From positions 992,001 to 1,056,000 of the forward strand of contig CAVXLD010000001.1 in NCBI GenBank assembly GCA_963762565.1: 64,000 bases of DNA, read 5' to 3'. Positions 1-33,851 of the stretch are shown here, in pieces (positions within the stretch are counted from its first letter, which is position 1; each line of letters opens with the position of its first letter). The DNA is from an uncultured Verrucomicrobiae bacterium (GTDB lineage: Bacteria; Verrucomicrobiota; Verrucomicrobiia; Chthoniobacterales; JAFAMB01). The notes beneath the pieces were generated by a model. That model had not been told where the DNA came from and did no database searches. It saw only the letters and a list, made by a program, of their open reading frames with translations. The position numbers and the translations under genes are program-made.

Positions 1-1038
1 TTGGGCGCCGGTAACGTTCAAATATTTCTTTTGCATGCTCTCGATAATGTCTTGAGCCAGTTCCGACCGAATCAATGAAACCGTTGAACCTCCAAAACCG
101 CCACCAGTCAGTCGCGATCCGATAACTCCATTCGTCGATTGCGCGATTTCGACCAAGGCGTCCAGATGAGTCGTACTGTTTTCGAAGTTATGCTGCGAGC
201 TTTCATGCGAAGCGAACATCAGCTTACCAAAGGTGTCTACATCCCCTGCCAGCAAGGCTTCGCGACCAGCAAACACGCGTTCATTTTCACCGGTGATATG
301 TAAGGCTCGGCGCTTAACTAAAGGTTCTAGATCGCTGTTCAGTACCTGAGCCGTAGTCGCATCCCGAAGTGCGGGAACCTTAAGAGCTGCAGCCGCGGCC
401 TGGCACTGTTCTCGCCGCTCATTGTATTCACCGCCAGTCAATTCATGCGGTATTCCCGAATCGAGCAATAGTAACGAAACCCCTGCCGGTAACTGATAGG
501 TCTCCGCCGTAATCGAGCGAAAGTCTAAGAGAATCGCCCGGTTATCCTCTCCAAACACCGATGAAGCCTGATCCAGAAGGCCGCATTTCACCCCCACAAA
601 ATCGTTCTCCGCTTTCTGACATAGCTGCGCTATTTTCATGGGTCCGAGCGACCAGTTAGCTAAGTCAATCACAGCAAAAGCAGTGGCTACTTCGAGTGCA
701 GCCGAACTCGACAGGCCGGCGCCAAGCGGTAAATCGCTAGCGATCTCAATGCGGAAGCCATGACTAGGTAGCCCCGCTGCCGCCAGTTCCCGGATCACCC
801 CAAAGCAATAGTTAGCCCACGGTTCTTGCGCAGATGGCACAAGTTGATCTAGATCTTCGATCGCGGTCCGTTGCTTGGTTTGCGAACTAACCTCAATCTG
901 CCGTTGAGGCAGTCGATGAACGGACGCCGTAACGCCGCGATCGATCGCGGCTGACAGCACCACACCTTGATTGTAGTCGGTGTGATTTCCAAGTATTTCG
1001 ACTCGACCTGGCGCAAAAGCTACAACGCGGTTATGCAT
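1..1038 (-). CDS. galK: Galactokinase (3' end runs off the window)
   Basis: Not in the ORF track. Manual translation from ATG 1038 gives MHNRVVAFAPGRVEILGNHTDYNQG, with GHMP motif PLGAGLSSSA, CGLLDQ and GSRLTGGGFGG. Confidence 0.93.
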   Translation of the reverse strand, partial: MHNRVVAFAPGRVEILGNHTDYNQGVVLSAAIDRGVTASVHRLPQRQIEVSSQTKQRTAIEDLDQLVPSAQEPWANYCFGVIRELAAAGLPSHGFRIEIASDLPLGAGLSSSAALEVATAFAVIDLANWSLGPMKIAQLCQKAENDFVGVKCGLLDQASSVFGEDNRAILLDFRSITAETYQLPAGVSLLLLDSGIPHELTGGEYNERREQCQAAAAALKVPALRDATTAQVLNSDLEPLVKRRALHITGENERVFAGREALLAGDVDTFGKLMFASHESSQHNFENSTTHLDALVEIAQSTNGVIGSRLTGGGFGGSTVSLIRSELAQDIIESMQKKYLNVTGAQ

Positions 1039-7777: not shown

Positions 7778-8421
7778 CTGACTCATCAAAAGATTTTGAA
7801 AGCAAGGAACACACTAGAACCGGCGAGAACGCTGAAGAGCAGAATGTGACGCTCGTGACGAACTTAGGAAACACTGACCCAGAAGCGATGTCGACCCAGA
7901 CAAACAGCGCACCGGATCCGTCTTCGGACCCGGCTCGGCAAGTAGCCGAATTACAAGCCGAGGTGAGCAAATACAAAGATGCCGCTCTCCGGGCGGTAGC
8001 CGACCTTGATAACTATCGAAAAAGAGTGTCTCGGGAACGTGACGAATCGGTCAAATACGCAAACACTGCTTTCCTGGAACGCCTAATTCCTATCCTCGAT
8101 AATTTCGAGCTCGGCCTTCAGGCTGCTCGCAACGCTCCGGGGGCCGCCCCCATTGTGGACGGGTTGTCTATGGTTTATAAGCAGCTTCAGGAGTTTCTGG
8201 CCAATAGCGGTGTCGAAATCATCGACGCCGCCGGACACACTTTCGATCCCAACCTTCACGAGGCGTTGGCCCAGGAGGAAAGTCGCGAGGTTCCAGAGGG
8301 TAAAGTCATTCGACAGGTGCGAAGAGGCTATCGTTTGCGGGACCGCCTGCTACGCCCGGCGAATGTTGTAGTTTCAAAAGGCGCCCCCCGGCAAGTAGCG
8401 ACGGAAACGGAGGGAGAGTAA
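7774..8421 (+). CDS. grpE: Nucleotide exchange factor GrpE
   Basis: RAVADLDNYRKR, LIPILDNFE, FDPNLHEA, GYRLRDRLLRPANVVV. Confidence 0.96.
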   Translation: MTDSSKDFESKEHTRTGENAEEQNVTLVTNLGNTDPEAMSTQTNSAPDPSSDPARQVAELQAEVSKYKDAALRAVADLDNYRKRVSRERDESVKYANTAFLERLIPILDNFELGLQAARNAPGAAPIVDGLSMVYKQLQEFLANSGVEIIDAAGHTFDPNLHEALAQEESREVPEGKVIRQVRRGYRLRDRLLRPANVVVSKGAPRQVATETEGE

Positions 8422-8424
8422 GTG

Positions 8425-9588
8425 ATGGCGACCAAGCGGGACTACTACGAAGTCTTGGGCGTCGATCGTAAGGCTTCAACTGAAGAGCTGAAAAAGGCTT
8501 ACCGTAAGCTCGCGGTAAAATATCATCCCGATAAGAATCCCGGCGATCCGACTGCCGAAGAAAAATTCAAAGAGATCGGTGAGGCTTACGAGGTTCTTCT
8601 GGATCCGAATAAACGGGCTGCGTACGACCAGTTCGGTCATGCCGCTTTTTCACCAGGAGCCGCTGCCGGTCGGGGAGGGTTTAGTGGCGGTGGGTTCCAC
8701 GATCCATTCGATATTTTCCGTGAAGTATTCGGAGGAATGGCCGGCGAAGGCGCCGGCAGCATTTTCGATCAGCTGTTTGGCACTGGCGCAAGTCCTCGGG
8801 ATCGCAGCGGACGGCAGCGAGGATCCGATCTCCGGTACGACCTGCAGATCACTCTCGAAGAGGCCGCCTTCGGCACCGAACGAGAGGTCGAGATCCTCAA
8901 ACACGACGCCTGTACGCGTTGTAATGCCACCGGCGCTGAGGCGGGTTCTAAAGCCACCACTTGCCCAGTTTGTCATGGACGCGGTCAAGTCGTTACTTCG
9001 CGCGGCTTTTTCCAAGTGTCACAAACTTGTCCCCGTTGTCGGGGAACCGGACAAGTAATTGAACGTCCGTGCCGCGACTGTAACGGTGAGGGACGCCTTG
9101 AGAAACGTTCTCGGATTAAGCTCAAGATTCCCGCGGGCATCGATGACGGAGCTAAGCTGAGGTCGATGCGAAATGGCGAAGCCGGTGTCCGGGGCGGACA
9201 GTCCGGCGACCTGTACGTGGTGATTCATATCCGCGAACACGAGATTTTTTCGCGGGATGAGGATGATCTCTTTTGCGAAGTACCCATCTCTTTTGCCGTA
9301 GCCGCCCTTGGTGGAGAATTAAAGGTTCCGACCTTGCAAGGGCAGGCCATGCTTAAAATTCCACCTGGGACTCAAGGCGGAACGCAATTTCGGTTGAGAG
9401 GGTATGGAATCACCAATATCGATTCTAAAACTAAAGGGGATTTACGCGTTCGTGTCCTGGTTGAAGTACCGACCAGACTAAACGGCGAGCAGCGAAAGAA
9501 ATTGGAAGAGTTTGCCGCTTCGTGTGGGGATGACAACACCCCCATACACCGAACGTTTTTTGATAAGGCGAAGGATTTCTTCCGTTAG
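8425..9588 (+). CDS. dnaJ: Chaperone DnaJ
   Basis: J-domain HPD, G/F region, four CxxCxGxG-type repeats. Confidence 0.97.
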
Positions 9589-12846: not shown

Positions 12847-14157
12847 CTACCCCAGATATGGTATCGTCAGCGGCCCTTGCGGCAGAACCGCAATCCGTGC
12901 TCCATCTCCTGCCCGATCCAGACGCTCTCTCACCGCTTGGGCGATATCATGGCAGGGCTGCAGTTTTGCCTCCGAAACCTTTTCATCCGAGAGTCCGCTG
13001 TAGACCAACACTTCCGCCCGTCGCTGGATCACCATCTGCACGATCACCTGCCATTGTTCCGGTTCTTCCCGGGTTGGGTCTGTGATGTACCGGAACAAAG
13101 CTTCAAATGAGTCTGAGTGCTTTAACAGACGCTCGTAAGGACTGCCGTTCGGTACTCCGTCAGAACATTCGCTAGCGATAATGATGGTTCCGCCTTTCCG
13201 AACGATTCTAGCAGCAGCACTCATCCCTTTTACCGCTTGATAAAGATTTTGGTCCAGCGGGTAACCGCTGTTGGTCGTAACCACTACTTCATAGGGCGCC
13301 GTCACCTTCTGCATCGCGGTTTGCCGCACGAAATCGCAGCCTTCACGATGGGCGCTGATCAAGTGTCCGGAAAAGACTCCAGTGATTTCGCGACTCTCGT
13401 TAAGCGTCACGTTCACGAGAAAACTTTCCCCAACTAACAACGCCAAGTCGCGCATCTCTTCCCAGATCGGATTTCCCTCGAGCACACCAAACGAGGCTTG
13501 CGGATTGCTAAGATTTACGCCGCTGTGATTCTGCAAAACGGTGCGCAACCCAGCCACGCCCGGCATAATCCCTTTCGGTCCTCCACTGAACCCGGCAAAG
13601 AAATGAGGTTCGATAAACCCAGTGCTGATTCGAACATCCGCTTCGACCACGCGCCGGTTAATTAACGCCGGGCCACCGGCTCGGGTGGTTCCAACCTGCA
13701 CCAATTCATTCGGATCATCGGCGTTATGATTCAGCACTCGATACCGCTCTACCACCTCGTCAGTCAGCAATTGTCGCAGCTCTGCGTCCGTGTTTGGCCT
13801 ATGCGTCCCTGTGCCGTTGATGAGGGTGATGTTGCTCGCCGGAACTACCTCAATCAGATACTCGAGCAACCACGGTATGATCCGTTCATTCGGAGTCGCC
13901 CGGGTGATGTCCGTAAAGACAATGCAAACCCGAGCATCGGGAAAAAGATGCTCTCGAAGCGACCTGCTTCCGATGGGATGATTCAGCGACCGTAAGAAAC
14001 TCTCTTTCTCGTCTTTCAAGCCGGGTACCGACACCGGCTCGATGACATCGGTCCGGTCTCCCGGCAATTCAACGTCGAGAAACCCGCGTCCGTAGGCGAG
14101 CTGAACTGTACGGGTTGGGTCCACCTTCCACGATATACCAGCATCTCCAGGGGACAA
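12847..14157 (-). CDS. larA: Nickel-pincer-dependent lactate racemase family (LarA homolog)
   Basis: DITR, GTHR, PHFFAGFSGGPKGIMPG, YPLDQNLYQAVKG. Exact start uncertain. Confidence 0.88.
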   Translation of the reverse strand: MSPGDAGISWKVDPTRTVQLAYGRGFLDVELPGDRTDVIEPVSVPGLKDEKESFLRSLNHPIGSRSLREHLFPDARVCIVFTDITRATPNERIIPWLLEYLIEVVPASNITLINGTGTHRPNTDAELRQLLTDEVVERYRVLNHNADDPNELVQVGTTRAGGPALINRRVVEADVRISTGFIEPHFFAGFSGGPKGIMPGVAGLRTVLQNHSGVNLSNPQASFGVLEGNPIWEEMRDLALLVGESFLVNVTLNESREITGVFSGHLISAHREGCDFVRQTAMQKVTAPYEVVVTTNSGYPLDQNLYQAVKGMSAAARIVRKGGTIIIASECSDGVPNGSPYERLLKHSDSFEALFRYITDPTREEPEQWQVIVQMVIQRRAEVLVYSGLSDEKVSEAKLQPCHDIAQAVRERLDRAGDGARIAVLPQGPLTIPYLG

Positions 14158-15820: not shown

Positions 15821-16678
15821 TTACGGTTTCTGGATCGGAACACGCACGCTATTTCCCCACTCTGTCCACGAGCCGTCGTAGTTCCGGACGTCCTCGAAAT
15901 CGAGAAGCTTGGTCAGCACGAACCAGGTGTGGCTGGAGCGTTCACCGATTCGGCAATACACCACGGTGTGGTCGGACGGAGAAAAGTTTAGGTTCTCGAC
16001 GTAAATCTTTCTCAATTCTTCCGCCGACTTAAACGTCCCGTCATCCTTAACTGCCGTTTTCCAAGGTACGCTTTTTGCCGCCGGAATATGTCCTCCGCGC
16101 AACACACCTTCTTGCGGGTATTCCGGCATGTGAGTGATCTCGCCTTTGAATTCGCCCGGCGATCGGACGTCAATCAATGGTTTCCCGGCTTTGCTTTGCG
16201 CGAGTGCCTCTTCTTTGAACGCACGAATTTCGCTGTCTTTGCGGTCCGACGGAGTCGGGTATTTCGTCGCAGGATACTGCGGTTTTTCTTTCGTTACCGG
16301 CCTGCCTTCAGCAATCCATTTATCCCGTCCGCCATTCACGATTCGCATATCCTTGTGTCCGAATAGCGAAAACACCCAGAGAGCATAACAGGCCCACCAA
16401 TTGGACTTGTCTCCGTAAAAGATCAACGTTGTCTCAGGCGTGATGCCGATCGATTCGGCCAGCTTGGAAAACCCTGCCGGATCGATATAATCACGGACGG
16501 TTTGATCGTTTAAATCTCTACGCCAATCAACATGGACAGCACCCGGAATATGGCCGGTATCGTAAAGCAACACGTCCTCGTTGCTTTCAATGATCCTCAC
16601 CTTGGGATCACTCAGATGTTCGGCCACCCAATCGGTGCTGACCAACGACTCGGGGTGAGCATAATTTTGAGAGCTCAT
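15821..16678 (-). CDS. Tandem-domain rhodanese/thiosulfate sulfurtransferase (SseA/CysA type)
   Basis: [30 protein letters not shown]. Confidence 0.95.
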
Positions 16679-16717
16679 AAGTTACCGATACTAGCCTGGA
16701 TCAGTACCAGGTCAACC

Positions 16718-16780
16718 AAACTATACTCAACCAGTCGGCTAAAGTATACTCAACAGGTCGAGTAAAATATACTTCCCAGT
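16718..16780. promoter_or_regulatory. Three 23-bp-period operator-like repeats upstream of the sulfurtransferase
   Basis: AAACTATACTCAACCAGTCGGCT / AAAGTATACTCAACAGGTCGAGT / AAAATATACTTCCCAGT, with internal dyad TACTC-N8-GAGTA. Confidence 0.5.
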
Positions 16781-16955: not shown

Positions 16956-18437
16956 ATGACTACGACCATTCACGACGAACAACTCAAATCGGCCTCGCCC
17001 GGCGCTGAAGGATCGCACCAAAGCGAAGCGACGGCGGAACCGACTGAAACCACGTTCGACTGGCCTCTGGCCTACCAAGCTGAAAGTCTAGTCCGAGATC
17101 TTATCTCAGGGTTCCTAGGGAAAAACTCGGCCTCGCAATCGCTGGCCAAAGACTTGTCGGAAAAGACCGGCAGCGACTTTCTGGAATGGGTGGACCATTT
17201 CACGTTGGCGCCCGAACATGAACTGGAACTCCGAGATGCCGGATTCATCAACGAACCGGTGAGAGCTCAAGCCGGCCAAACGGTGTTTTATCACCCGCGC
17301 GCAATGTTGCCACGAGTGCTGGTCCGGCCCGCAGGCAGCGTGAACTCGGTTCCAGCAAAATTGGCGATCCGGCCGGAATCAGTCGTCGATTTTGTTGCTC
17401 GACAGCAGTTGTCCGGAAAAATCCAGGGAGCGTTCGGAGATCGCCTGCGCGAGGTCGTCATAGGCGCCGAAAGCGGTCATACTTTTAGTGCAATTGAGCG
17501 ATTGGCCTATCGGGACTTCGTTGAGCCAGACCGTGTTCCCGGCTTTGCCGCTGAGGTCATGGCCGTACGCGAGCTTTGGAGAAGCCGAAAGCGCGATTTC
17601 CCAAAAGACGAGGACGGAGTCCGGCATGCGTTGGCCTTACAGCAAGAAGCAATCGACCGGGTCGGAGCGGATGTCGCCTGTGAGCTTTTTTTTGCCGAAG
17701 AGCGCACCTACTGGGAACTCAGGAATCGAGCCGGCCGAATCCAAAAACGGAGACAAGATCTGCTCGGCCTAGGCTGGGGCAATCACGACCATCATACTTT
17801 CCGCTCATCGCGCCGGTTCTTTGCGGATCTAGTGACTTTCCTGCAGAATTTCGGCTTCCAGAAACGGGAGCGGTATTATGCCGGAGCTGAAGCCGGTTGG
17901 GGCGCTCAGATCCTGGAACACGCCGTTACCGGGATCACGGTCTTTGCCGACGTCGATTTGATGCCGGAGGAGACAGCGATCGATTTTTCCAGTCAGCGGT
18001 TACAAGAAGCGCCGGTGTTGCGAACAGTTGGGCTTTGGTGCGCCTTACATGGGGACAGTTTCTTGCAAGCAGGGATGCATCATCTCGAAGCTCGGTTCGA
18101 GTTTGAAAATCTTCGAGCTCAATTGGCCGATGAGGGCGTCACCACGATGAACCCGTTCTCGAACTTCGATTTCCTGAAGCAAGCCTTTACTCAGGGCGAA
18201 CGGTGGCAGGTGAATCCAAAACGAGTAGAGACCCTGCTGGAACGCGATCTCATTACAAAGGAGCAAGCCGCAAAGTTTTTGGAAGAAGGTGCTGTGGGTA
18301 GTCATTTAGAGAACTTACAGCGCCGAGGCGGTTTCAAGGGGTTCAACCAAAAATCGGTCAGCGTCATCATTCAGGCGACAGACCCACGCCGCGCTTACAG
18401 CGCAAATGACAAATCCCAAATAACAAATGACAAATAA
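16956..18437 (+). CDS. Conserved hypothetical protein, probable VOC/HPPD/DUF1338-like Fe(II) enzyme
   Basis: Motifs NHDHHTFRS, GMHHLEARF, SHLENLQRRGGFKGF...IIQATD; first gene of the lysine-catabolism-like cluster. Confidence 0.6.
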   Translation: MTTTIHDEQLKSASPGAEGSHQSEATAEPTETTFDWPLAYQAESLVRDLISGFLGKNSASQSLAKDLSEKTGSDFLEWVDHFTLAPEHELELRDAGFINEPVRAQAGQTVFYHPRAMLPRVLVRPAGSVNSVPAKLAIRPESVVDFVARQQLSGKIQGAFGDRLREVVIGAESGHTFSAIERLAYRDFVEPDRVPGFAAEVMAVRELWRSRKRDFPKDEDGVRHALALQQEAIDRVGADVACELFFAEERTYWELRNRAGRIQKRRQDLLGLGWGNHDHHTFRSSRRFFADLVTFLQNFGFQKRERYYAGAEAGWGAQILEHAVTGITVFADVDLMPEETAIDFSSQRLQEAPVLRTVGLWCALHGDSFLQAGMHHLEARFEFENLRAQLADEGVTTMNPFSNFDFLKQAFTQGERWQVNPKRVETLLERDLITKEQAAKFLEEGAVGSHLENLQRRGGFKGFNQKSVSVIIQATDPRRAYSANDKSQITNDK

Positions 18438-18547
18438 CAAGATGAACGACGGATACCTGAGAAACAAAGAACCGAAGCCCGAGACGGTGCGAGTCGCTCT
18501 CTCGATGCTCCCTATCAATTTGTTATCTGTCATTTGTCATTTGTCAT
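18405..18547. repeat. Inverted AATGACA/AATAACA heptamer arms
   Basis: AATGACAAATCCCAAATAACAAATGACAAATAACAA versus TTTGTTATCTGTCATTTGTCATTTGTCAT. Confidence 0.8.
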
Positions 18548-18558
18548 AAATTCTTGCC

Positions 18559-19665
18559 ATGCGAATTGGAATCATTGGTGCAGGGAAAATTGGGGGATCG
18601 ATTGCCGCGCTGTTGGAGACGTGCGGTTTTTGCGACGAAGTACGGCTAGCTGATAATCGTCCCTTGGACAGCCTGCAGACGTTACCGAAGTCTTCAAGCC
18701 ATATTCTAGATGTCACGTCGCAACCGGCGTTGCGAACATTCGTAGACTCCTGCGACGTGGTCGTGAGTGCTGCACCGTTCTATCTGAACAAAACGATCGC
18801 CTCTGCTTGCGCCGATCTTGAGCGGTCTTATTTCGACCTGACCGAGGATGTTGAAACGACGAATTTCGTGCGCGAGTTGAGCCAGGGCCGGCGCAGCACT
18901 TTCATGCCCCAGTGCGGGCTCGCACCTGGAGCCATTAATATTATTGCTAGCGGTATCGCTAACACCTTCAAACAGATCAGGACCGTGGAAATGCGGGTCG
19001 GCGCACTGCCTTTGTCCGCCAGTAACCAGATGAAGTATTACCTAAGCTGGAGCACTGCCGGATTAATCAACGAATATTGCCAGTTTGGCGAAGCGTTGAT
19101 CCAAGGCCGGCGACTGTTAACGAATCCTCTGGATGGCGTGGAGCGCTTAACCATCGACGGGGTGGAATATGAAGCATTCAACACTTCCGGTGGTGTGGCC
19201 ACGATGTGCGAGAGTTTCGAAGGCAAAGTCACCGACCTTAGCTATAAGACGCTGCGTTATCCCGGTCATCGGGACCTGATGAAGTTCCTGTTGGTTGACT
19301 TAAATTTGTGCCAGAAGCAGGACGTGCTAACGCAGATCTTCGACCAAGAGATCCCGTTGACCTTTAATGATGTCGTTGTGGTTTACGTCAACTCTGTAGG
19401 CTCCGACGGCGGCGCCCTTCTACAGAGGAGCTTCGTGAAAAAGATCTATGCGGGTCAGGTCAGTGGCCGATCCCTTTCCGCGATCCAACTTTCGACTGCC
19501 GCCGGAATAGTCGGTGCGCTTGAGTTGTTTGCCAACAAACAACTGCCCAGCGGTTTTGTGCGGCAAGAATCAATCAGCCTCAGCCAATTTTTTGAGACCC
19601 AGTGGGGCGGCCGAGTCTACGGCGAAGCCGAAACCGTCGCTCCGCGATTCAGTGTACAGACCTGA
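18559..19665 (+). CDS. Saccharopine dehydrogenase family / lysine 6-dehydrogenase-like
   Basis: GAGKIG, YFDLTED, PQCGLAPG, VGALP, LSWSTAGLINEY, AFNTSGG, YKTLRYPGH. Confidence 0.9.
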   Translation: MRIGIIGAGKIGGSIAALLETCGFCDEVRLADNRPLDSLQTLPKSSSHILDVTSQPALRTFVDSCDVVVSAAPFYLNKTIASACADLERSYFDLTEDVETTNFVRELSQGRRSTFMPQCGLAPGAINIIASGIANTFKQIRTVEMRVGALPLSASNQMKYYLSWSTAGLINEYCQFGEALIQGRRLLTNPLDGVERLTIDGVEYEAFNTSGGVATMCESFEGKVTDLSYKTLRYPGHRDLMKFLLVDLNLCQKQDVLTQIFDQEIPLTFNDVVVVYVNSVGSDGGALLQRSFVKKIYAGQVSGRSLSAIQLSTAAGIVGALELFANKQLPSGFVRQESISLSQFFETQWGGRVYGEAETVAPRFSVQT

Positions 19666-19796
19666 TCATGAAGAAGTAATCAGTAATCAGTGTGTCAGTA
19701 ATCAGTTCGGAAGCAGCCCGCGTCTCAACTGAATACTGATTACGTCTCCCTTTGTGCACGAAAAGAAACCTCGCGAAAACTTACTCAAACCGAGCT

Positions 19797-21347
19797 ATGA
19801 CCCCCAACAAATTCGACGTCGCCGCTGTCCGTGACGAAGTCTTCGCCAGCCTGCGCCTGACTCAAACCGAAAACGGCGCCTTCTTCGGCACATGGGCCGG
19901 AAACGGGCCGCTACTGGAAAAACATTCTCCCATCGATGGGTCGCTCCTTGGCGCCGTGCGCCAACCTTCGGAGAAGGATTACCAGACCGCCGTGGAAGCC
20001 GCTTCGCGCGCTTTCGAAGCCTGGAAACTCTTGCCGGCGCCGAAACGGGGTGAGGTTGTGCGCCGGATTGGCGACCGGCTCCGAGCAGTTAAATCCAGCT
20101 TGGGCAAATTGGTCACCCTCGAAGCCGGCAAAATTGTGGCAGAAGGTGAAGGAGAAGTGCAGGAAATGATCGATATCTGCGACTTCGCGAACGGCCTTTC
20201 CCGGCAACTGTACGGGTTGACGATCGCATCGGAACGCCCGCAACATCGCATGTTTGAACAGTGGCACCCGCTTGGCGTCGTCGGCGTGATTAGCGCCTTC
20301 AATTTCCCAGTGGCCGTTTGGTCGTGGAACGCGATGGTCGCGGCCGTAACCGGTAATGCGGTCCTTTGGAAGCCATCGGAGAAAACGCCTTTTACCGCTA
20401 TCGCCTGCACCAAAATCACGGCGGAAGTCTGTGAGCAAGCCGGAGTAGATCCGGCAATTTTCAGCCTGGTTTGTGGTGACCGGCTCATCGGTGAGCGACT
20501 CTCCAGTGATCGCCGGATCCCCTTAGTTTCCGCCACGGGTTCGACTCGCATGGGGCGACAAGTGGCCCAATCTCTGGCGGCCCGCCTGGGTAAGAGTCTG
20601 CTCGAGCTCGGAGGCAATAACGCAATTATTGTGACGCCAAGTGCCGATCTGCGTCTGGTCCAGCGCGCGGTTCTGTTCGGCGCTGTGGGAACTGCCGGAC
20701 AACGCTGTACTACAACGCGCCGACTGATCGTCCACCGTTCGATTCTCGATGAGGTGATCCAGACGTTAAGCGCCGCTTATCGCCAGGTTAGAATCGGTAA
20801 CCCCCTCGATCCCAATACCTTGATGGGGCCTTTGATCGACCAGCCTGCGGTCGATGGCATGGAGAACGCCATCCAGCGAGCGAGAGCGGCCGGTGCAACC
20901 GTGGTATTTGGTGGTAACCGGTTACCAGCAACTGACTATCCCGGAGGGCTCTATGTTGAACCCACGATCGTACGCGCGGAACCCGAGTGGCAGGTCGTTC
21001 AAGAAGAGACCTTCGCTCCTATCCTCTACGTTTTAGCGTACGAACATCTGGACGAAGCGATCGCCATCCATAACTCCGTGCCCCAAGGACTGGCCTCCGC
21101 CATTTTCTCTAACGACATCCGCGAGACTGAAAGGTTCCTTTCTTCCATCGGCAGCGATTGCGGGATTGCCAACGTCAACATTGGCACCAGCGGCGCGGAG
21201 ATCGGTGGCGCTTTCGGCGGCGAAAAAGACACCGGAGGTGGACGAGAAAGCGGCAGCGATTCTTGGAAAGCCTATATGCGGCGTCAGACGGTGACGATCA
21301 ATTATTCGCCGGACCTCCCGCTAGCTCAGGGCATCCGGTTCGAGTAA
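19797..21347 (+). CDS. amaB: Alpha-aminoadipic semialdehyde / piperideine-6-carboxylate dehydrogenase (ALDH7/AmaB type)
   Basis: GEVQEMIDICDFA.GLSRQL, SAFNFPVAV, LELGGNNA, GTAGQRCT, GIANVNIGTSGAEIGGAFGGEK, WKAYMRR. Confidence 0.9.
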   Translation: MTPNKFDVAAVRDEVFASLRLTQTENGAFFGTWAGNGPLLEKHSPIDGSLLGAVRQPSEKDYQTAVEAASRAFEAWKLLPAPKRGEVVRRIGDRLRAVKSSLGKLVTLEAGKIVAEGEGEVQEMIDICDFANGLSRQLYGLTIASERPQHRMFEQWHPLGVVGVISAFNFPVAVWSWNAMVAAVTGNAVLWKPSEKTPFTAIACTKITAEVCEQAGVDPAIFSLVCGDRLIGERLSSDRRIPLVSATGSTRMGRQVAQSLAARLGKSLLELGGNNAIIVTPSADLRLVQRAVLFGAVGTAGQRCTTTRRLIVHRSILDEVIQTLSAAYRQVRIGNPLDPNTLMGPLIDQPAVDGMENAIQRARAAGATVVFGGNRLPATDYPGGLYVEPTIVRAEPEWQVVQEETFAPILYVLAYEHLDEAIAIHNSVPQGLASAIFSNDIRETERFLSSIGSDCGIANVNIGTSGAEIGGAFGGEKDTGGGRESGSDSWKAYMRRQTVTINYSPDLPLAQGIRFE

Positions 21348-21383: not shown

Positions 21384-22202
21384 ATGGACGCCGATACCGC
21401 CCGTTTCTACTCGCGCGATGGCTTACTATCGCAAATCTACGACCAACTGACGGCCGCGGAATGGGAAGCGTCCCAAAACGATGTTCCATTTTTCCTGGAA
21501 GAAGCCAGGCTCTCCGGCGGTCCTCTGCTTGAGCTCGGCTGCGGCACGGGCCGGCTATTGATCCCTCTGCTTTCGACAGGAGTTCAAGTCAGCGGACTGG
21601 ACGCCAGCGCCGTTATGCTGGAGGCCGCCAAGCGAAAACGTGACCAACTTCCTGCTGATATCGCCGGACGGTTACATCTTCACCAGGGCAACATGTCGGA
21701 GTTCGAACTCGGGCAACAATTCGCTTTGATTTTGGTCGCTTTCAGATCATTCCAGCTTTTGTTAACTCCTGAAGCACAGCGGTCCTGTTTAATTTGTATC
21801 GGCAGGCATCTGGTTCCGAAAGGTAGAGCGATTATTAACCTGTTCGATCCGCGCTACGATTTAATCACCGCGGGGACACAAAAGAGCGTTTCGTCACCCA
21901 AAGATCTTATTCACCCTCTTTCCGGGAATCATATACTGGTGGAGACTTTGGAGCGCGAGAACGATCCGTTGACTCAAACCTTCAAAGAGCGGTGGCGCTT
22001 CACCGAAACCGATTCTAGGGGAGCATTGGTTCTGCAGGAAGAAGCACAACTCCAAATGCGTTGGACCTTCCGCTACGAAATGCGCCACCTGGTCGAGAGC
22101 TGCGGCTTCGTCGTTGAATCCGAGTACTCGGATTTTCGCCGTTCTGCTCCTCAATATGGCAAGGAACAAATCTGGGTCCTGAGGCACGGCACCGAACACT
22201 GA
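21384..22202 (+). CDS. Class I SAM-dependent methyltransferase
   Basis: LLELGCGTGR, GLDAS, QGNM, HLVPKGR. Confidence 0.88.
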   Translation: MDADTARFYSRDGLLSQIYDQLTAAEWEASQNDVPFFLEEARLSGGPLLELGCGTGRLLIPLLSTGVQVSGLDASAVMLEAAKRKRDQLPADIAGRLHLHQGNMSEFELGQQFALILVAFRSFQLLLTPEAQRSCLICIGRHLVPKGRAIINLFDPRYDLITAGTQKSVSSPKDLIHPLSGNHILVETLERENDPLTQTFKERWRFTETDSRGALVLQEEAQLQMRWTFRYEMRHLVESCGFVVESEYSDFRRSAPQYGKEQIWVLRHGTEH

Positions 22203-29386: not shown

Positions 29387-30586
29387 TCACGCATACGAGC
29401 TCTCGCCGCGAATACCCAAAGCAATCCTGCGCTCTTTCCGCTCCTCTGCAGTCCGTGCGGCATACCCGCTTTCGCGAAATGCTCGCAGTGGGTCCCCTGA
29501 TAAACCACAGCTCTTCCGCCATTCAACCAGCGCAGGCCGAACATCGGTGAAAAACGCCTCACGCAAACATTCCTCAGCATCGATTTCAGAATTGGTTTCC
29601 TGATACTCGGCCAGCTCTGAGTGCCGCACCAGTGCGGCTTTGGCATACAACTCTTGGGCAGTGCAGACGGTCTGGATCGTCGCTTCGATCTTCGGTTTGT
29701 CGTTGTGCGATTGATCGATCATGTAGGCAATTTCGGGTCTGCGACCTGTTTCCCAGCCATAGAATAAGATCTCATTGAAGATGCGGAAAATCTGATACGG
29801 ATCGATCGACCCAAGAGTGAGATCGTCATCCGCGTAACGGCGATCATTAAAATGGAACCCGCCGAGCATCTCTTCATCCAACAGCCAAGCCACGATTTGC
29901 TCGATGTTTTGCGCCTGGTAATGGTGACCCGTATCGACTAACACTTTCGCTTTTGGTCCAACAGCTTTGGACACAATGTAAGCCATCCCCCAATCGGCCA
30001 GATCGGTATGATAGAACGTCGGTTCGAACGGCTTGTATTCGACCAACATGACTTGGTCTGAGTCCATCTCGGCGGCAACTTCCTGCAGCGATTCCGTGAT
30101 CGCCTTCTTCCGCCACCGAATATTTGCTTGTCCTGGATAATTCGACCCATCCGCAAACCAAAGAGACAAGTAACGGCTGGAAAGTTGTTTCGCGATCTTA
30201 ACGCTGTCCAGGATGTGAGCTCGGGCCGCCTTTCGGGCGTTCGCGTCCCGGTTGCATAGGGAACCATACTTATAGATCTGGTCCTGGAAGACGTTGGGGT
30301 TAACTGAACCCAGCTTCAGTCCCATCTTTTCTGCTGACCGTTTTACGCTGAGCGGATCTTGCGCGTCTTTAAAATCCCAAAGCACATGGACCGCCATGGT
30401 CGGGCAGCAACCGGTCACTTGGTGCACTTGGGCCGCATCAGAAATCTTGTCGTTGATATCGATCGCAGCGCCATCCTGAAGAAATTTACCGAAGCGTGTC
30501 CCAGTATCAGCAAACCCCCAGCTCGGAGTCTCAATCTGAAATTCGTTTAGAGCCGCCAGGACTTTATCAATTAGTTCGGAGTTCAT
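29387..30586 (-). CDS. rhaI: L-rhamnose isomerase (RhaI type)
   Basis: ETPSWGF..TGTRF, WFADGSNYPGQ, EYKPFEP, DTGHH, FHFNDR; rhamnose operon context. Confidence 0.9.
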   Translation of the reverse strand: MNSELIDKVLAALNEFQIETPSWGFADTGTRFGKFLQDGAAIDINDKISDAAQVHQVTGCCPTMAVHVLWDFKDAQDPLSVKRSAEKMGLKLGSVNPNVFQDQIYKYGSLCNRDANARKAARAHILDSVKIAKQLSSRYLSLWFADGSNYPGQANIRWRKKAITESLQEVAAEMDSDQVMLVEYKPFEPTFYHTDLADWGMAYIVSKAVGPKAKVLVDTGHHYQAQNIEQIVAWLLDEEMLGGFHFNDRRYADDDLTLGSIDPYQIFRIFNEILFYGWETGRRPEIAYMIDQSHNDKPKIEATIQTVCTAQELYAKAALVRHSELAEYQETNSEIDAEECLREAFFTDVRPALVEWRKSCGLSGDPLRAFRESGYAARTAEERKERRIALGIRGESSYA

Positions 30587-30653
30587 TCTGTTTTGGGGGT
30601 TACCAAGTCAATTCGTCACGCTGGTTTGCGAGTAATTTGCTATCTGCTATTTG

Positions 30654-31418
30654 CTATTTGCTATTTTGGACGAGCCTCAGCGAGTCACCCCCGCCTCCCA
30701 CCAAAATAACGGTCAACTTCCTCGGCCCATGCGCTCCTAAAACCAAGACCCTTTCGATATCTCCCGTCCGGCTGGGCCCGGTGATGAAAGTCATAAAGCT
30801 CGGAAAGTTTGGCGCATACTTCCGCTCCAGGAACTCAAAGGCGGCCGGCAAATCCGGCACCAACTGTCCAGCCGTCGCGATGACCACGTGATGAACAGGC
30901 AGTACCGATAACGCTCTCCCACCGCCGCTCTTCGCGGTCAACAACACACTTCCAGTTTGGGCAATCAATGCGTCACAACTGGTAATACCCGCCGAAACTT
31001 TCTCGAGATCGGTTTTCGCCGTCGATTGGCTCACTTCGAGTTTCCGAATCGAAAGATTTCTTAGGAGTGTTTGGGCTTCACTATCAACGGGGAAAGCAAT
31101 CGACTCCCATCCTTCGCGATCAGATAACTGCTGAAGTTGCGCACTTGCGGCCGCTTGATCTCGGCACGCTAAAAATTCGGTTTTCAACGTCTCGCTTCGT
31201 TCAGCAAATAGAGCCACTTGGCCGGCGAAATCATCGGGCACCTTCGGTAGAAGATGGCGAAAACCGCTCGATTGATCCGCCGCCGCTTCGCTATGGCGCG
31301 ACAGGTCCGGCGCCGCTTCGCTTAAGGGCGACGCATGACCAGAACTGCCGCCTCGCAAGGCCTCACGCACCCGGGCCAGAATGGAATCACGAGCGTTCAC
31401 GAAGTCCGTTGTTTCCAA
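30654..31418 (-). CDS. lutC: Lactate utilization protein C (LUD domain)
   Basis: IAQTGS, LPVHH, ITGPSRTGDIE..LVLGAHGP. Confidence 0.9.
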   Translation of the reverse strand: METTDFVNARDSILARVREALRGGSSGHASPLSEAAPDLSRHSEAAADQSSGFRHLLPKVPDDFAGQVALFAERSETLKTEFLACRDQAAASAQLQQLSDREGWESIAFPVDSEAQTLLRNLSIRKLEVSQSTAKTDLEKVSAGITSCDALIAQTGSVLLTAKSGGGRALSVLPVHHVVIATAGQLVPDLPAAFEFLERKYAPNFPSFMTFITGPSRTGDIERVLVLGAHGPRKLTVILVGGGGDSLRLVQNSK

Positions 31419-32794
31419 AGATCACGAAACGATTTTCTAGCGAACGAAGGTAATTCGCGGCTTTTGGTCCAAGACCAAGCCGGATCGGCTGCAGTTGCGT
31501 TAAACAAACGCTGTAGAGGCGCGAGACCTTTCATGACTTCGGTGGCGTACCCAAATAGACGCGGCCGATTAACCACAAAAGCAAAAGCCTTAAAACCAAG
31601 CTGCTGAAAGGGCGAACTCTTCTCCGTCACAGCGTTTCGCCGATTTTGTAAAAGATGATGATGCAGATCGATCTTCACCGGACAAGTCTCAGTGCAAGCG
31701 CCGCACAGCGATGAAGCTTGCGACAGATGCTGCCACGATTGCAGTCCTCGCAAATGAGGGGTTATGACTGAACCGATGGGACCTTGATAAGTGGTGCCAT
31801 AAGCATGTCCGCCAACATTTCGGAAAATTGGGCAGACATTCAGACAAGCCCCGCACCGGATACACCGTAAGGCGTCTCGCTGCTCGGCGTCGGCCAGTAG
31901 CCGAGTCCTACCGTTATCCAGCAGCACAACGTGCATTTCTTCCGGACCGTCAATCTCGTCAGCGCTGCGCGGCCCTCCGATTAGCGAGTTATAGCAAGTG
32001 AGCTGCTGTCCGGTTCCAGCCGTAGCTAACATCGGTAAGAAAAGCGCCAAATCCGCCAATCGCGGCAAGATTTTTTCAATGCCGATCAAAACCACATGCG
32101 TCTTCGGCAGGGCAGAAGTCAGCCGCGCATTCCCTTCGTTCTCGGTGATCGAAATCATTCCTGTCTCGGCCACCGCAAAGTTCGCGCCCGTAATGCCCAT
32201 GTCCGCCGTCACATATTCCTGGCGCAGCGCTTTCCGCGCGGTCATGGTCAGCGCTTCCGGGTCAGAAGTTGGCTCCGCTCCTAGCTTCTGTTGAAACAGG
32301 TCGCTAATCTGTCCTCGGGTCAAGTGCATCGCCGGAAACACGATGTGATAAGGGGGTTCCTGCCGCAGCTGCACTATAAATTCGCCCAGGTCAGATTCTA
32401 CGACTTGGAACCCGGCCTTCTCCAGTGCCTCGTTCAAGTGAATTTCCTCGGACACCATCGTCTTGGATTTGACGATGGCTCTGACTTGCTTGGCTCGTGC
32501 TAAATCCAGGACGTAAGCCCTTGCCTCAGTCGCATCGTTAGCCCAAAAAACCTTGGCGCCACGGGCAATGAGTTTTTCTTCAAATTGCGCCAGGTACTCA
32601 TCCAGATGGCGAATGGCTTCATCTTTAGTTGCCGCTGCCTGCCCCCGGGCCGACTCCCAGTCCTGAAACCGGCCGGCATTGGCGCTGCGCGTCGTTTGGT
32701 ATCCGGCGAGCGACTGCTGCACCATTTGGCGATGCCCGAGATCCGCCACCATGTGGGTCGCATCAGTATTAAATTGTGAAGCAGGAGAGGGCAT
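31397..32794 (-). CDS. lutB: Lactate utilization Fe-S protein B
   Basis: KSKTMVSEE, DLGEFIVQL, ENEGN, CIRCGAC..CP, CGAC..CPVKI. Confidence 0.93.
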   Translation of the reverse strand: MPSPASQFNTDATHMVADLGHRQMVQQSLAGYQTTRSANAGRFQDWESARGQAAATKDEAIRHLDEYLAQFEEKLIARGAKVFWANDATEARAYVLDLARAKQVRAIVKSKTMVSEEIHLNEALEKAGFQVVESDLGEFIVQLRQEPPYHIVFPAMHLTRGQISDLFQQKLGAEPTSDPEALTMTARKALRQEYVTADMGITGANFAVAETGMISITENEGNARLTSALPKTHVVLIGIEKILPRLADLALFLPMLATAGTGQQLTCYNSLIGGPRSADEIDGPEEMHVVLLDNGRTRLLADAEQRDALRCIRCGACLNVCPIFRNVGGHAYGTTYQGPIGSVITPHLRGLQSWQHLSQASSLCGACTETCPVKIDLHHHLLQNRRNAVTEKSSPFQQLGFKAFAFVVNRPRLFGYATEVMKGLAPLQRLFNATAADPAWSWTKSRELPSFARKSFRDLWKQRTS

Positions 32795-32808
32795 TACGAA
32801 GCGTGATT

Positions 32809-32976
32809 AGTGAGAGGTGAGACGTGAGAAGTGAGAGGTTGTCGAAGCCCCTGATCGGGAGGGCGCGCGTCCCCGCGCGCCGCGGTTGGGTCGACGACTA
32901 TTGATGTACTCAAACGCTCGACCGAAGCACCCGTTGGGCTTCGATAACAAAGGATCGCGAGGACGCGATCCCTCCC
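32809..32976. repeat. GTGAGAG/A heptamers plus a family C palindrome between lutA and lutB
   Basis: AGTGAGAGGTGAGACGTGAGAAGTGAGAG, then GGGAGGGCGCGCGTCCCCGCGCGCCG versus CGCGAGGACGCGATCCCTCCC. Confidence 0.75.
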
Positions 32977-33131
32977 GGCGCCGGGTGATGGAGCTGCCTA
33001 TAGTTGTCAGCATAGCCTTTGCACCTAATGCGTTTTTATTCAAACAGCGGGACGGTCCGGCGTAGCCGGAATGTTCCGCTGTCGTAGCCTGCATTGTTAG
33101 AAAATGTATGATCATTTTCGTGCAATGCAGG

Positions 33132-33851
33132 CTAATGAAAATTAGCTAACACCTCAGCCAAGTGAAGCGTCTTCATTTTTGCGCCTGAACGTTTCAGCAA
33201 CCCTTCCAGGTGCATCAGACAACTGGAATCATTCGAGATAAGGTATTCGGCTCCGGTCTTTGTCGCCAAACCGCATTTGGTTTCTCCCATGGCGGTGGAA
33301 ATCATAGGAAACTTAACCGCGAAAAGGCCGCCAAAGCCGCAGCAGGCTGTGGTGTCTTCCATCTCGATCAGGGTAAGGTCCTTTACCTGCCGCAACAACG
33401 TTCGCGGCTGGGTGCGCACCCCGAGCTCACGCATTCCATGACAACCGTCATGAAACGTTGCTGAAGCCTGGAACCGGCTGCCTAGGTCGGTAACTCCAAG
33501 TTTATCCACCAAAAATTCGGAAAACTCGAAGACTCGTAAAGCAAGCTGATTCACCGTCTCTTCTTGTTTACTGCCGGCGAACATCTCCCGATAGAAAACT
33601 CTGATCATGGTCGCGCATGAACCGGAAGGCACGACCACAAGCTCCTTATCAGACAACCGCTCGATGACTTTGGCGGCCACCTCCTTGGCTGCCGGCCAGA
33701 AACCCGCGTTAAACGCAGGTTGCCCGCAACAAACGAGGTGGGGATCAAAATCGACTTCGTGACCCAGGTGCTCGAATACTCGTACAACGCTCAGACCAAC
33801 TTGGGGGTAAAACAGGTCGATATAGCAAGGTATGAACAGAGAGATTTTCAC
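33132..33851 (-). CDS. lutA: Lactate utilization protein A (CCG domains)
   Basis: FIPCYID, CCGQP, SGSCA, HDGCH, CCGFGG, SCLMHL. Confidence 0.93.
   Translation of the reverse strand: MKISLFIPCYIDLFYPQVGLSVVRVFEHLGHEVDFDPHLVCCGQPAFNAGFWPAAKEVAAKVIERLSDKELVVVPSGSCATMIRVFYREMFAGSKQEETVNQLALRVFEFSEFLVDKLGVTDLGSRFQASATFHDGCHGMRELGVRTQPRTLLRQVKDLTLIEMEDTTACCGFGGLFAVKFPMISTAMGETKCGLATKTGAEYLISNDSSCLMHLEGLLKRSGAKMKTLHLAEVLANFH

Follow-up and report, generated by a model that had tools for sequence, protein, structure and literature searches.

Three genes follow one another on the same strand of the 64,000-nucleotide stretch of DNA analysed here (the window), encoding a protein without a name, called X below, an oxidoreductase of the saccharopine dehydrogenase family and AmaB (Table 1). 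The first-pass annotation had placed the X reading frame upstream of a saccharopine/lysine dehydrogenase gene and an AmaB gene, and this arrangement was confirmed; the three motifs that it had quoted, NHDHHTFR, MHHLEARF and HLENLQRRGGFKGFNQKSVSVIIQATD, are all found in the translation of X. It had also called the protein unannotated, which agrees with our searches. X has no match in Pfam at E ≤ 10, none in NCBIfam and none by tblastn against plasmids, and the source names shown for its relatives all read "hypothetical protein". A PDB sequence search with X alone returned a single chance-level match, GerE (E = 0.17), and the best matches to the family profile, EzrA and 4-hydroxyphenylpyruvate dioxygenase (HPPD) at E 0.4-0.8 (HPPD 0.74), are not significant. 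X is nevertheless a real conserved gene and a member of a large family of "hypothetical proteins", mostly from Verrucomicrobiota: 6309 of the 8000 candidate proteins scored reach E ≤ 1e-3, and an exhaustive search at the same threshold gave 781 clusters (50% identity).

Table 1 Features of the X locus (nucleotide positions in the window unless residues are given)
Feature	Position	Strand	Remarks
Three tandem 23-nt units, TATACT-like ends	16711..16779	.	divergent intergenic region upstream of X; candidate operator
Protein X	16956..18437	+	ATG start, 493 aa
X, variable N-terminus	residues 1-29		disordered
X, N-terminal VOC domain	residues ~30-195
X, helical linker	residues ~197-268
X, C-terminal VOC domain	residues ~277-474		catalysis predicted
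Motif D278-H279-H280-T-F-R283-S-S	17790..17813	+	first beta-strand of C-terminal domain; R286 directly after
Motif H375-H376-L-E-A-R380	18078..18095	+	start of beta-strand 376-380 (AF2 model)
Motif H450-L-E452-N-L-Q-R456-R-G-G-F-K461-G-F	18303..18344	+	last long beta-strand 446-456, then C-terminal helix 465-474
Saccharopine-dehydrogenase-family oxidoreductase (SDH)	18559..19665	+	368 aa; Pfam Sacchrp_dh_NADP + Sacchrp_dh_C
AmaB / L-piperidine-6-carboxylate (2-aminoadipate semialdehyde) dehydrogenase	19752..21347	+	NCBIfam NF050084 equivalog

The SDH product matches no named NCBIfam family, and its best PDB relative is 3abi (PH1688; E 7e-15), which we take to be a lysine dehydrogenase. It is probably an L-lysine 6-dehydrogenase that converts lysine to 2-aminoadipate semialdehyde/P6C. 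AmaB scores 802.9 bits against the NF050084 cut-off of 730, and matches Pfam Aldedh at 1.3e-134; its ORF opens at TTG, its relatives align from about residue 5-37 onward, and the start is likely the ATG at 19797 (residue 16). The SAM methyltransferase gene downstream (21384-22202) was rejected as a cluster member, with a relative in none of the 80 related loci. Upstream of X, two of the 23-nt units were found by repeat search and the third was read by eye; the units are kept in L001 and L002, the loci nearest to this one, and are not conserved in loci L004-L006.

Predicted fold of X and its relation to known families

The AlphaFold2 model of the whole protein (pLDDT 91.6, pTM 0.90) consists of two tandem VOC domains, and the model of the C-terminal domain has a pLDDT of 94.0. 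The order of secondary-structure elements in the models fits paired beta-alpha-beta-beta-beta VOC modules, with matches to VOC proteins only. In the ESM Atlas, the structure matches of X are VOC, HGLS and HPPD clusters; against VOC clusters, TM is 0.90 by row for residues 236-482 and 0.78 by query for residues 30-200. The AlphaFold2, Foldseek and ESM Atlas results together predict the VOC fold that had been proposed for X, and the extra N-terminal domain suspected at the outset is real, being a second VOC domain. Conservation across the family is concentrated in the C-terminal domain, while the N-terminal domain is poorly conserved and is probably structural, as in HPPD.

In Foldseek searches with whole X, HPPD and hydroxymandelate synthase (HMS) rank first (E 1.4e-9 to 8.5e-9 over 456-489 columns), but the whole-protein TM-scores to them are only 0.19-0.28 by query. 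For the C-terminal domain, the top PDB match is 3lho (E 2.2e-7, TM 0.57/0.58), and the scores are TM 0.61/0.52 for rice hydroxyglutarate synthase 6w1k, 0.53/0.44 for 3iuz, 0.49 for YdcJ 2rjb and 0.46 for HglS 6w1h. The likeness to both HPPD and DUF1338 noticed earlier is therefore seen in the structures, with HPPD/HMS as the best matches of the whole protein and 3lho, 6w1k and 3iuz as those of the C-terminal domain. The available portion of PMC7286885 lists 3LHO, 3IUZ and 2RJB as DUF1338 structures. Short-type DUF1338 proteins, among them 3LHO and FLO7, are the closest structural matches of the C-terminal domain of X. Methylmalonyl-CoA epimerases and HPPD/HMS reach TM-scores against this domain similar to those of DUF1338 (0.46-0.61, modest); since generic VOC enzymes score like DUF1338, structure alone indicates a VOC fold and not a specific reaction. 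The VOC fold supports many chemistries.

By sequence, X is not a DUF1338 member. Pfam HGLS (PF07063) matches 0 of 70 X family members even at E ≤ 10, and Glyoxalase (PF00903) matches 2 of 70, with a best E of 0.052. Profile alignment of the X family with YdcJ alone by hhalign gave a probability of 0.3%, and alignment with nine YdcJ/HglS sequences gave 0.4% (E 0.17, 20 columns), the latter set comprising long-type proteobacterial and actinobacterial proteins only, eight of them homologues from plasmids. A search with E. coli YdcJ was of little use for diversity, as the 120 matches listed are all E. coli/Shigella proteins at least 93% identical to it. The proposal of a divergent HglS-like family thus stands as far as the VOC fold and the residue spacings described below are concerned, but not as DUF1338 membership detectable by sequence.

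Conserved residues and the predicted metal site

Residue conservation was counted in 70 aligned X family members, and a second count covered 81 copies. In the first motif, all 81 copies keep H279 (67/70), H280 (63/70), R283 (67/70) and R286 (70/70); the first metal ligand is predicted to be H279, and R283, at His+4, is predicted to bind the distal carboxylate. In the second motif, H375 is present in 64 of 70 members and H376 in 66, and H376, the predicted second ligand, is kept in all 81 copies. The third motif contains H450 (63/70), E452 (66/70), R456 (67/70), K461 (63/70) and G462 (70/70), with E452 and R456 kept in 81 of 81 copies and E452 as the predicted carboxylate ligand. On the basis of motif spacing and beta-strand positions, the C-terminal domain is predicted to carry a 2-His-1-carboxylate site, H279/H376/E452, amid the basic residues R283, R286, R456 and K461. 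The His/His/Glu set picked out by the first-pass annotation accordingly consists of near-invariant residues and is joined by an arginine at the first His+4, and the C-terminal E..R..GF...helix that it described is present as near-invariant E452 and R456 followed by helix 465-474 of the AF2 model. H280, H365, H375 and H450 are also conserved in the family, and a simple triad leaves them unexplained.

The spacings H-x3-R and E-x3-R of X are those of YdcJ (H68/R72 and E290/R294). In turn, YdcJ H68-x3-R72 aligns to HglS H70/R74, H224 of the YdcJ segment N-H224-L-T-P-R corresponds to HglS H226, and E290 of E290-x3-R294-G corresponds to HglS E294. In HglS, H70, H226 and E294 form the metal triad, while R74 binds the distal carboxylate and its replacement in R74A yields an inactive enzyme (PMC7286885, available portion). 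Judged by spacing (H279+4), R283 of X, present in 67 of 70 members, would match this specificity arginine.

Gene linkage across related loci

Linkage was counted by tblastn over 80 X-related loci, within the fetched flanks. The expected synteny with amaB was found: amaB lies beside X on the same strand in 52 of the 80 loci. Among the 51 loci whose flanks reach at least 3.5 kb in either direction, the count is 34. Several gene orders occur, namely X-SDH-AmaB (31 loci), X-AmaB (4) and AmaB-X (17). Wherever an AmaB-X locus extends far enough upstream (12 loci), the order is LAT-AmaB-X, and this LAT scores 588 bits against the cut-off of 520.8 for the NCBIfam L-lysine 6-transaminase equivalog. In a quick tree, the deepest split separates the X-SDH-AmaB order from the AmaB-X order (support 100 on each side), and the presence of LAT in place of SDH in the other clade supports the lysine-dehydrogenase role of the latter.

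Thirteen loci encode, divergently upstream of X, a protein of ~990 aa with FAD-oxidase and Fe-S domains. Of the NCBIfam families, YdiJ D-2-hydroxyglutarate dehydrogenase matches it best, at 569 bits where the cut-off is 1350, and this divergent YdiJ-like protein is a candidate enzyme of that kind. It occurs only in a single Opitutaceae clade of 16 rows and may therefore reflect one event. According to the available portions of the sources, PP_4493/YdiJ oxidises D-2HG in the lysine catabolism of P. putida, and HglS homologues often lie beside such genes (10.1101/450254; PMC12297413). No canonical HGLS gene was found in the 80 loci or in the window, and no aminotransferase gene for the step from 2-aminoadipate to 2-oxoadipate is conserved near X across the related loci. 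A scan of 44 window ORFs yielded neither an aminotransferase for this step nor a YdiJ-like gene.

In 26 of the 80 loci, 16 of them with long flanks, there is no lysine gene nearby. No coherent alternative theme emerged from the 102 of 168 candidate neighbour ORFs scanned in these loci (those of 140-2000 aa lying within 2.6 kb), and the neighbours are miscellaneous. An ABC-2 membrane pair lies upstream of X in five of the unlinked loci.

Proposed role of X and comparison with known systems

HglS converts 2-oxoadipate to 2-hydroxyglutarate, and the bacterial step from 2-oxoadipate onward was solved only in 2019-2020 with this DUF1338 enzyme. We propose, with moderate confidence, that X is an Fe(II)- and O2-dependent enzyme that converts 2-oxoadipate to D-2-hydroxyglutarate and stands in for HglS; we infer its metal binding, substrate, product and stereochemistry. 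X heads an operon, and the products of the two genes behind it would take L-lysine to L-2-aminoadipate, the lysine-6-dehydrogenase-like enzyme acting first and AmaB second. An aminotransferase encoded elsewhere would then make 2-oxoadipate. X would hold the 2-oxo-acid end of this substrate at Fe(II), with R283 binding the distal carboxylate. Decarboxylation and hydroxylation by X with O2 would give D-2-hydroxyglutarate, which the YdiJ-like dehydrogenase that adjoins X in some relatives may return to 2-oxoglutarate. X would thereby be the functional replacement for HglS (DUF1338) in Verrucomicrobiota.

If X carries out the HglS reaction, a gap in lysine catabolism would be filled for an entire phylum, whose members live in soil, in fresh water and in association with the gut, and hundreds of sequence clusters of "hypothetical proteins" would gain a testable function. 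X would also represent a third architecture, beside HPPD/HMS and DUF1338, among the few oxygenases whose own 2-oxo-acid substrate is both decarboxylated and hydroxylated. D-2-hydroxyglutarate could then be made or sensed with enzymes built on a new scaffold.

X may instead be a VOC metalloenzyme of lysine catabolism with another intermediate or reaction. It might act on some other 2-oxo acid, for example, or carry out an oxidative decarboxylation to glutarate without hydroxylation, or use 2-aminoadipate/P6C directly and so bypass the aminotransferase. Such a role would fit the absence of a conserved aminotransferase from the cluster, the lack of sequence homology to HglS, the equally good match of generic VOC enzymes to the C-terminal domain, and the extra conserved H280, H365, H375 and H450, which point to a more complex site than the triad of HglS. 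However, the arginine spacings at His+4 and Glu+4 equal those of YdcJ/HglS, and the YdiJ-like 2-hydroxyacid dehydrogenase adjoining X in 13 loci fits a 2-hydroxy-acid product. No VOC enzyme is known to act on amino acids or cyclic imines, which speaks against direct use of 2-aminoadipate/P6C. Taken together, we regard an alternative of this sort as somewhat unlikely. Should the reaction differ, the conserved operon would point to an undescribed lysine pathway.

Less likely still, X could represent a two-domain VOC oxygenase of a new type, whose histidine-rich site (HH on each of the two ligand strands, together with H365 and H450) carries out undescribed chemistry, for example using 2-aminoadipate/P6C directly without an aminotransferase or yielding a product other than 2-hydroxyglutarate; either would mean that bacteria have a new way of feeding lysine into central metabolism.

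For the C-terminal domain, the top matches include methylmalonyl-CoA epimerases (TM by target 0.57-0.61), and a fold that allows many chemistries could also belong to a VOC protein without oxygen chemistry, be it an epimerase/isomerase, a lyase resembling glyoxalase or a protein that binds a metabolite. These epimerases are, however, single domains of ~140 aa, for which high TM by target is expected; no acyl-CoA gene is consistently linked to X, and the H...H...E set with its flanking arginines and C-terminal helix matches the 2-oxo-acid oxygenase branch, which makes a non-oxygenase function improbable. An enzyme of the HPPD or hydroxymandelate-synthase type, acting on a monocarboxylic 2-oxo acid, aromatic or otherwise, and lying near amaB without sharing its pathway, would account for the best whole-protein structural matches, the common two-VOC-domain architecture and the 26 of 80 loci without nearby lysine genes, but is highly improbable given the amaB linkage in 52 of 80 loci with three gene orders and two alternative lysine-oxidising enzymes, a conserved Arg/Lys-rich site that suits a dicarboxylate, the non-significant sequence match to HPPD (E 0.74) and unlinked loci without an aromatic-catabolism theme.

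X has in common with HglS/YdcJ/FLO7 (DUF1338, PF07063) the VOC-type central beta-sheet of its C-terminal domain, the conserved His, His and Glu with Arg at the first His+4 and at Glu+4, and the genomic association with amaB and a YdiJ-like dehydrogenase. It differs from them in the lack of detectable sequence or profile similarity, in the additional N-terminal VOC domain and 70-residue helical linker, in its ligand positions (predicted at 279/376/452, compared with 70/226/294 in HglS), in its extra conserved histidines and in its occurrence mostly in Verrucomicrobiota. With HPPD/HMS, X shares two tandem VOC domains, of which the C-terminal one holds the conserved site and ends in a helix, and ligands (predicted in X) ~80-100 residues apart in that domain, whereas the whole-protein TM is low, the sequence match is not significant, and X has a long helical insert between the domains, a predicted arginine-rich pocket and a genomic context of lysine rather than tyrosine catabolism.

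The closest known pathway is the D-lysine/2-aminoadipate route of P. putida (AmaB, PP_4108, HglS and YdiJ), which shares the AmaB equivalog with the X operon and, in the available portions of its descriptions, the same logic of funnelling 2-aminoadipate to 2-oxoglutarate, a YdiJ-like gene adjoining X in 13 relatives. While the P. putida route is entered via AmaD/DpkA/AmaA, the X loci would start from L-lysine through a lysine-dehydrogenase-like enzyme or LAT, and the HglS step would fall to a family unrelated to HglS by sequence.

The operon and the family of its first gene product

Protein X, the 493-residue product of the first gene of the lysine-degradation operon, contains all three motifs that the first-pass annotation had read in it (NHDHHTFR, MHHLEARF and HLENLQRRGGFKGF). 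Pfam and NCBIfam also placed a saccharopine-dehydrogenase-family gene and then an AmaB gene behind X on the same strand, which is the gene order that had been claimed. The alignments of relatives of AmaB begin only at about residue 5–37, which makes the ATG at 19797 the probable true start of its gene. None of the 80 related loci that carry X homologues has a relative of the SAM methyltransferase gene, which was therefore probably added to the operon locally; its top NCBIfam match is a daptide-type RiPP methyltransferase (101.9 bits, cut-off 175). The rhodanese gene is common to only the five closest of the 80 loci, and both genes lie outside the conserved cluster.

Features of the window and predicted domains of X
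Feature	Position	Strand	Description
893-aa ORF	2048–4729	−	three ATP-dependent DNA ligase domains and an N-terminal metallo-hydrolase RNA-specificity (RMMBL) region
LarA-type lactate racemase homologue	12847–14157	−	Lar_N and LarA_C domains; ~3 kb upstream of the operon
Rhodanese-type sulfurtransferase gene	15821–16678	−	upstream of X, opposite strand
Three tandem 23-nt units	16711–16779		GTC...AA..TATACT-like; intergenic, between X and the divergently oriented rhodanese gene
X	16956–18437	+	ORF with ATG start, 493 residues
X, beta/alpha domain	residues ~40–195		AlphaFold2 model
X, helical segment	residues 197–268		~70 residues; AlphaFold2 model
X, second beta/alpha domain	residues ~277–474		ends in a helix; AlphaFold2 model
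Saccharopine-dehydrogenase-family protein	18559–19665	+	368 aa; both saccharopine-dehydrogenase Pfam domains
AmaB (L-piperidine-6-carboxylate dehydrogenase)	19752–21347	+	NCBIfam equivalog, 802.9 bits against a cut-off of 730
SAM methyltransferase gene	21384–22202	+	starts 36 bp past amaB
Sugar-acid cluster	29387–37497	−	LutA/B/C-like genes (CCG, LUD, Fe-S domains), a 725-aa class II aldolase/short-chain dehydrogenase fusion and an FGGY kinase

Two of the 23-nt units were detected by a repeat search and the third by eye. They are kept in the two loci closest to the window (L001 and L002), are absent from L004–L006, and represent a candidate operator for some regulator. Elsewhere in the window, the combination of DNA ligase and RMMBL regions in the 893-aa ORF is an unusual fusion, and the sugar-acid cluster looks like a rhamnose/fucose-type catabolic cluster unrelated to the finding on X.

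X is nameless but not an orphan. It matched nothing in Pfam even at E ≤ 10 and nothing in NCBIfam, and its sole match among PDB sequences was at chance level (E = 0.17). A word-seeded search in which 8000 candidates were scored returned at least 6309 relatives at E ≤ 1e-3; every name among the matches listed is "hypothetical protein", and every named organism listed is a Verrucomicrobia MAG. An exhaustive search of 50%-identity representatives put the family at 781 clusters with E ≤ 1e-3, of which 499 reached 1e-10 and 204 reached 1e-30; the full-length representatives are mostly of 440–480 aa, with an alignment spanning about residue 30 to about residue 480. When one genome per species was scanned, at least 590 X-encoding stretches were recovered, the best 80 of which make up the locus set. 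Nearly all of these are titled as Verrucomicrobiota (Opitutaceae, Chthoniobacterales, Pedosphaera, Methylacidimicrobium), while L068, L048, L079, L055, L057, L061 and L067 are MAG contigs titled Bifidobacterium, Saccharimonadales, Bacteroidota, Solibacter, Acidoferrum or Acidobacteriota. Because the X copies of the latter nest within Verrucomicrobiota clades of the protein tree, these titles probably reflect binning errors rather than gene transfer.

Predicted fold and active site of X

The AlphaFold2 model of X, predicted with an alignment of 70 full-length members, has a mean pLDDT of 91.6 and a pTM of 0.90, with disorder limited to residues 1–23 and 486–493. When the whole model was compared with the PDB by Foldseek, the two-domain VOC oxygenases HPPD and hydroxymandelate synthase (HMS) came first (E 1.4e-9 to 8.5e-9, 456–489 alignment columns), with a low TM of 0.22–0.28 by query and an rmsd of ~20 Å; therefore, the domains match those of HPPD and HMS while their relative placement or the linker differs. 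We also modelled the C-terminal part alone, and its first-ranked match was a DUF1338 structure.

Foldseek matches in the PDB of X residues 236–493, modelled alone (pLDDT 94.0)
Entry	Protein	E	TM
3lho (ranked first)	DUF1338 structure	2.2e-7	0.57/0.58 (query/target)
6w1k	rice hydroxyglutarate synthase FLO7	2.7e-6	0.61/0.52
3iuz	DUF1338 structure	2.1e-6	0.53/0.44
2rjb	YdcJ	3.0e-5	0.49/0.36
6w1h	P. putida HglS	1.3e-4	0.46/0.28
several	HPPD/HMS	1.1e-6 to 1.3e-4	0.34–0.51 (query)
several	methylmalonyl-CoA epimerases, ~140 aa	7.8e-7 to 1.1e-5	0.57–0.61 (target)

3LHO, 3IUZ and 2RJB are presented as DUF1338 structures, and a VOC fold with a similar metal site as common to HglS, HMS and HPPD, in PMC7286885. 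In the ESM Atlas, which uses its own model, residues 236–482 matched VOC, HGLS and HPPD clusters, and residues 30–200 alone matched VOC clusters with a TM of 0.78 by query, in keeping with the extra N-terminal domain that the first-pass annotation had proposed. Since both halves have matches in the PDB and the ESM Atlas, X is predicted to consist of two tandem VOC domains in the HPPD/HMS architecture, its modelled C-terminal domain being closest to a short DUF1338 protein. Both HglS and HPPD, the folds to which X had been likened, are thus among its structural matches.

At the sequence level, the Glyoxalase model matched two of the 70 aligned members (best E 0.052) and PF07063, the DUF1338 family, matched none at E ≤ 10. 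The hhalign probability of the family profile was 0.3% against YdcJ and 0.4% against a nine-sequence alignment of YdcJ and eight plasmid-borne homologues (42–63% identity), a comparison confined to long-type DUF1338 proteins. By these measures, X is not detectably a DUF1338 member in sequence. The description of X as a divergent HglS-like family stands on its structural neighbours, site spacings and amaB context, and fails on these sequence measures.

The C-terminal domain carries most of the conservation; on its N-terminal side, up to residue 270, the positions conserved in at least 90% of the 70 aligned members are limited to W36, D80, G96, G158, E181, R182, R211, R213, E249 and R250. Beyond it, R286 is kept in all 70, H279, R283 and R456 in 67, H365, H376 and E452 in 66, H375 in 64, and H280, H450 and K461 in 63, and all eleven residues are present in the 81 X copies of the 80 loci and the window. 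The His/His/Glu set that had been claimed is thus conserved, and the C-terminal domain of the model ends in a helix as described; H280, H365, H375 and H450 are conserved though they go beyond a simple triad. In the model, H279–R283 belong to strand 277–283, with which the domain opens, while H376 begins strand 376–380 and E452 falls within the last long strand (446–456). YdcJ of E. coli K-12 carries H68-G-A-I-R72, N-H224-L-T-P-R and E290-I-E-Q-R294-G, and these sites align to H70/R74, H226 and E294 of the HglS chain. H70, H226 and E294 are reported as the HglS triad, with R74 binding the distal carboxylate of 2-oxoadipate and R74A inactive (PMC7286885). X has the same spacings as YdcJ and HglS (H279-x3-R283, H376-L-x-x-R, E452-x3-R456), and from spacing and strand position we infer that H279, H376 and E452 correspond to the HglS triad and R283 to R74.

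Gene neighbourhood across 80 loci

Neighbours were counted by tblastn over the 80 loci, with X flanks of at most 8 kb. An AmaB relative lies on the strand of X in 52 loci; of the 51 loci in which each flank measures 3.5 kb or more, 34 have one. The synteny proposed with amaB is found in several orders: X, saccharopine-dehydrogenase-like gene, AmaB as in the window (31/80), X then AmaB (4/80) and AmaB then X (17/80). The saccharopine-dehydrogenase-like gene occurs alone in two loci, one of them truncated, and neither gene is present in 26, ten of which have short flanks. L015 (X at 8001–9371) has the saccharopine-dehydrogenase-like gene after X with no AmaB relative within 8 kb on either side, and is the only long-flank locus of this kind. 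The loci lacking lysine genes have miscellaneous neighbours with no shared alternative theme (102 of 168 candidate ORFs scanned). Five of them (L057 and L060–L063) have a pair of adjacent ABC2_membrane_6 genes, encoding ABC-2 transporter permeases, immediately upstream of X in the same orientation.

A quick maximum-likelihood tree of 81 X proteins has two groups, each with an SH-aLRT support of 100. The first holds all 17 AmaB–X loci and 20 unlinked ones; the second holds 32 rows with the order of the window (the window included), four X–AmaB, two with only the saccharopine-dehydrogenase-like gene and six unlinked. Therefore, X adjoins AmaB in both of the groups formed by the deepest split, and these differ in gene order and in the first enzyme: lysine 6-transaminase in one group and a lysine-dehydrogenase-like protein in the other. 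Wherever an AmaB–X locus extends 3.4 kb or more upstream (12 loci), the order is aminotransferase, AmaB, X, and a representative aminotransferase exceeded the cut-off of the NCBIfam L-lysine 6-transaminase equivalog (588 bits, cut-off 520.8). Both first enzymes would make 2-aminoadipate semialdehyde/P6C from lysine. The best argument for reading the saccharopine-dehydrogenase-family gene as a lysine 6-dehydrogenase is this substitution, because the transaminase takes its place in the other clade. The nearest PDB relative of its product is 3abi (E 7e-15), which we take to be a lysine dehydrogenase.

In 13 loci, a ~990-aa protein with FAD-oxidase and 4Fe-4S/GlpC-like domains is encoded divergently from X, 125–349 bp upstream in 12 and 2.7 kb in one. 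Its top NCBIfam family is the YdiJ D-2-hydroxyglutarate dehydrogenase, at 569 bits, far below the equivalog cut-off of 1350. The YdiJ-type PP_4493 is reported to oxidise HglS-made D-2-hydroxyglutarate in P. putida, and HglS homologues to adjoin often "glycolate dehydrogenase" genes of YdiJ type (10.1101/450254; PMC12297413). Because all 13 loci fall within one 16-row Opitutaceae clade, they count as one observation, and the adjacency may go back to one evolutionary event. Near X, the related loci share no conserved aminotransferase gene for the step from 2-aminoadipate to 2-oxoadipate, the class I/II aminotransferase of L079 matching only itself; Pfam annotation of 44 ORFs of the window revealed no aminotransferase and no YdiJ-like gene. 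A canonical HGLS gene was found neither in the window nor in the flanks, of at most 8 kb each, around X in the 80 loci.

Proposed route and comparison with known oxygenases

In the route that we propose, the dehydrogenase-like enzyme, or the transaminase in the other clade, would first oxidise C6 of lysine, AmaB would yield L-2-aminoadipate, and an aminotransferase encoded elsewhere would give 2-oxoadipate. X would hold Fe(II) by H279, H376 and E452, the Fe(II) taking the 2-oxo-acid end of the substrate and R283 binding the distal carboxylate, with R286, R456 and K461 nearby. With O2, X would decarboxylate and hydroxylate 2-oxoadipate to D-2-hydroxyglutarate, the type of reaction that HglS, HMS and HPPD carry out on their own substrates, and a YdiJ-like dehydrogenase would form 2-oxoglutarate. 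That X is a VOC-fold enzyme acting in lysine catabolism is very probable, and we somewhat favour an Fe(II)/O2 enzyme producing D-2-hydroxyglutarate from 2-oxoadipate in this route, for which metal, substrate, product and stereochemistry are our deductions. The gene, its conservation, predicted fold, structural neighbours and linkage come directly from computation; the first-pass observation is confirmed and, as far as computation reaches, its interpretation supported. The finding gives a large family without a name a predicted function that is credible and can be tested, and is not a new kind of system. No description of the family turned up in a full-text search of open-access literature.

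X is predicted to resemble HglS in function, as judged by predicted site, context and structural neighbours, while it fails the sequence membership tests of PF07063. In its predicted structure it shares two VOC domains, a C-terminal site and a terminal helix with HPPD and HMS, whereas it fails their sequence tests and sits in a different pathway. The best description of X is a new VOC-superfamily family, probably a third lineage of the oxygenases whose own 2-oxo-acid substrate is both decarboxylated and hydroxylated.
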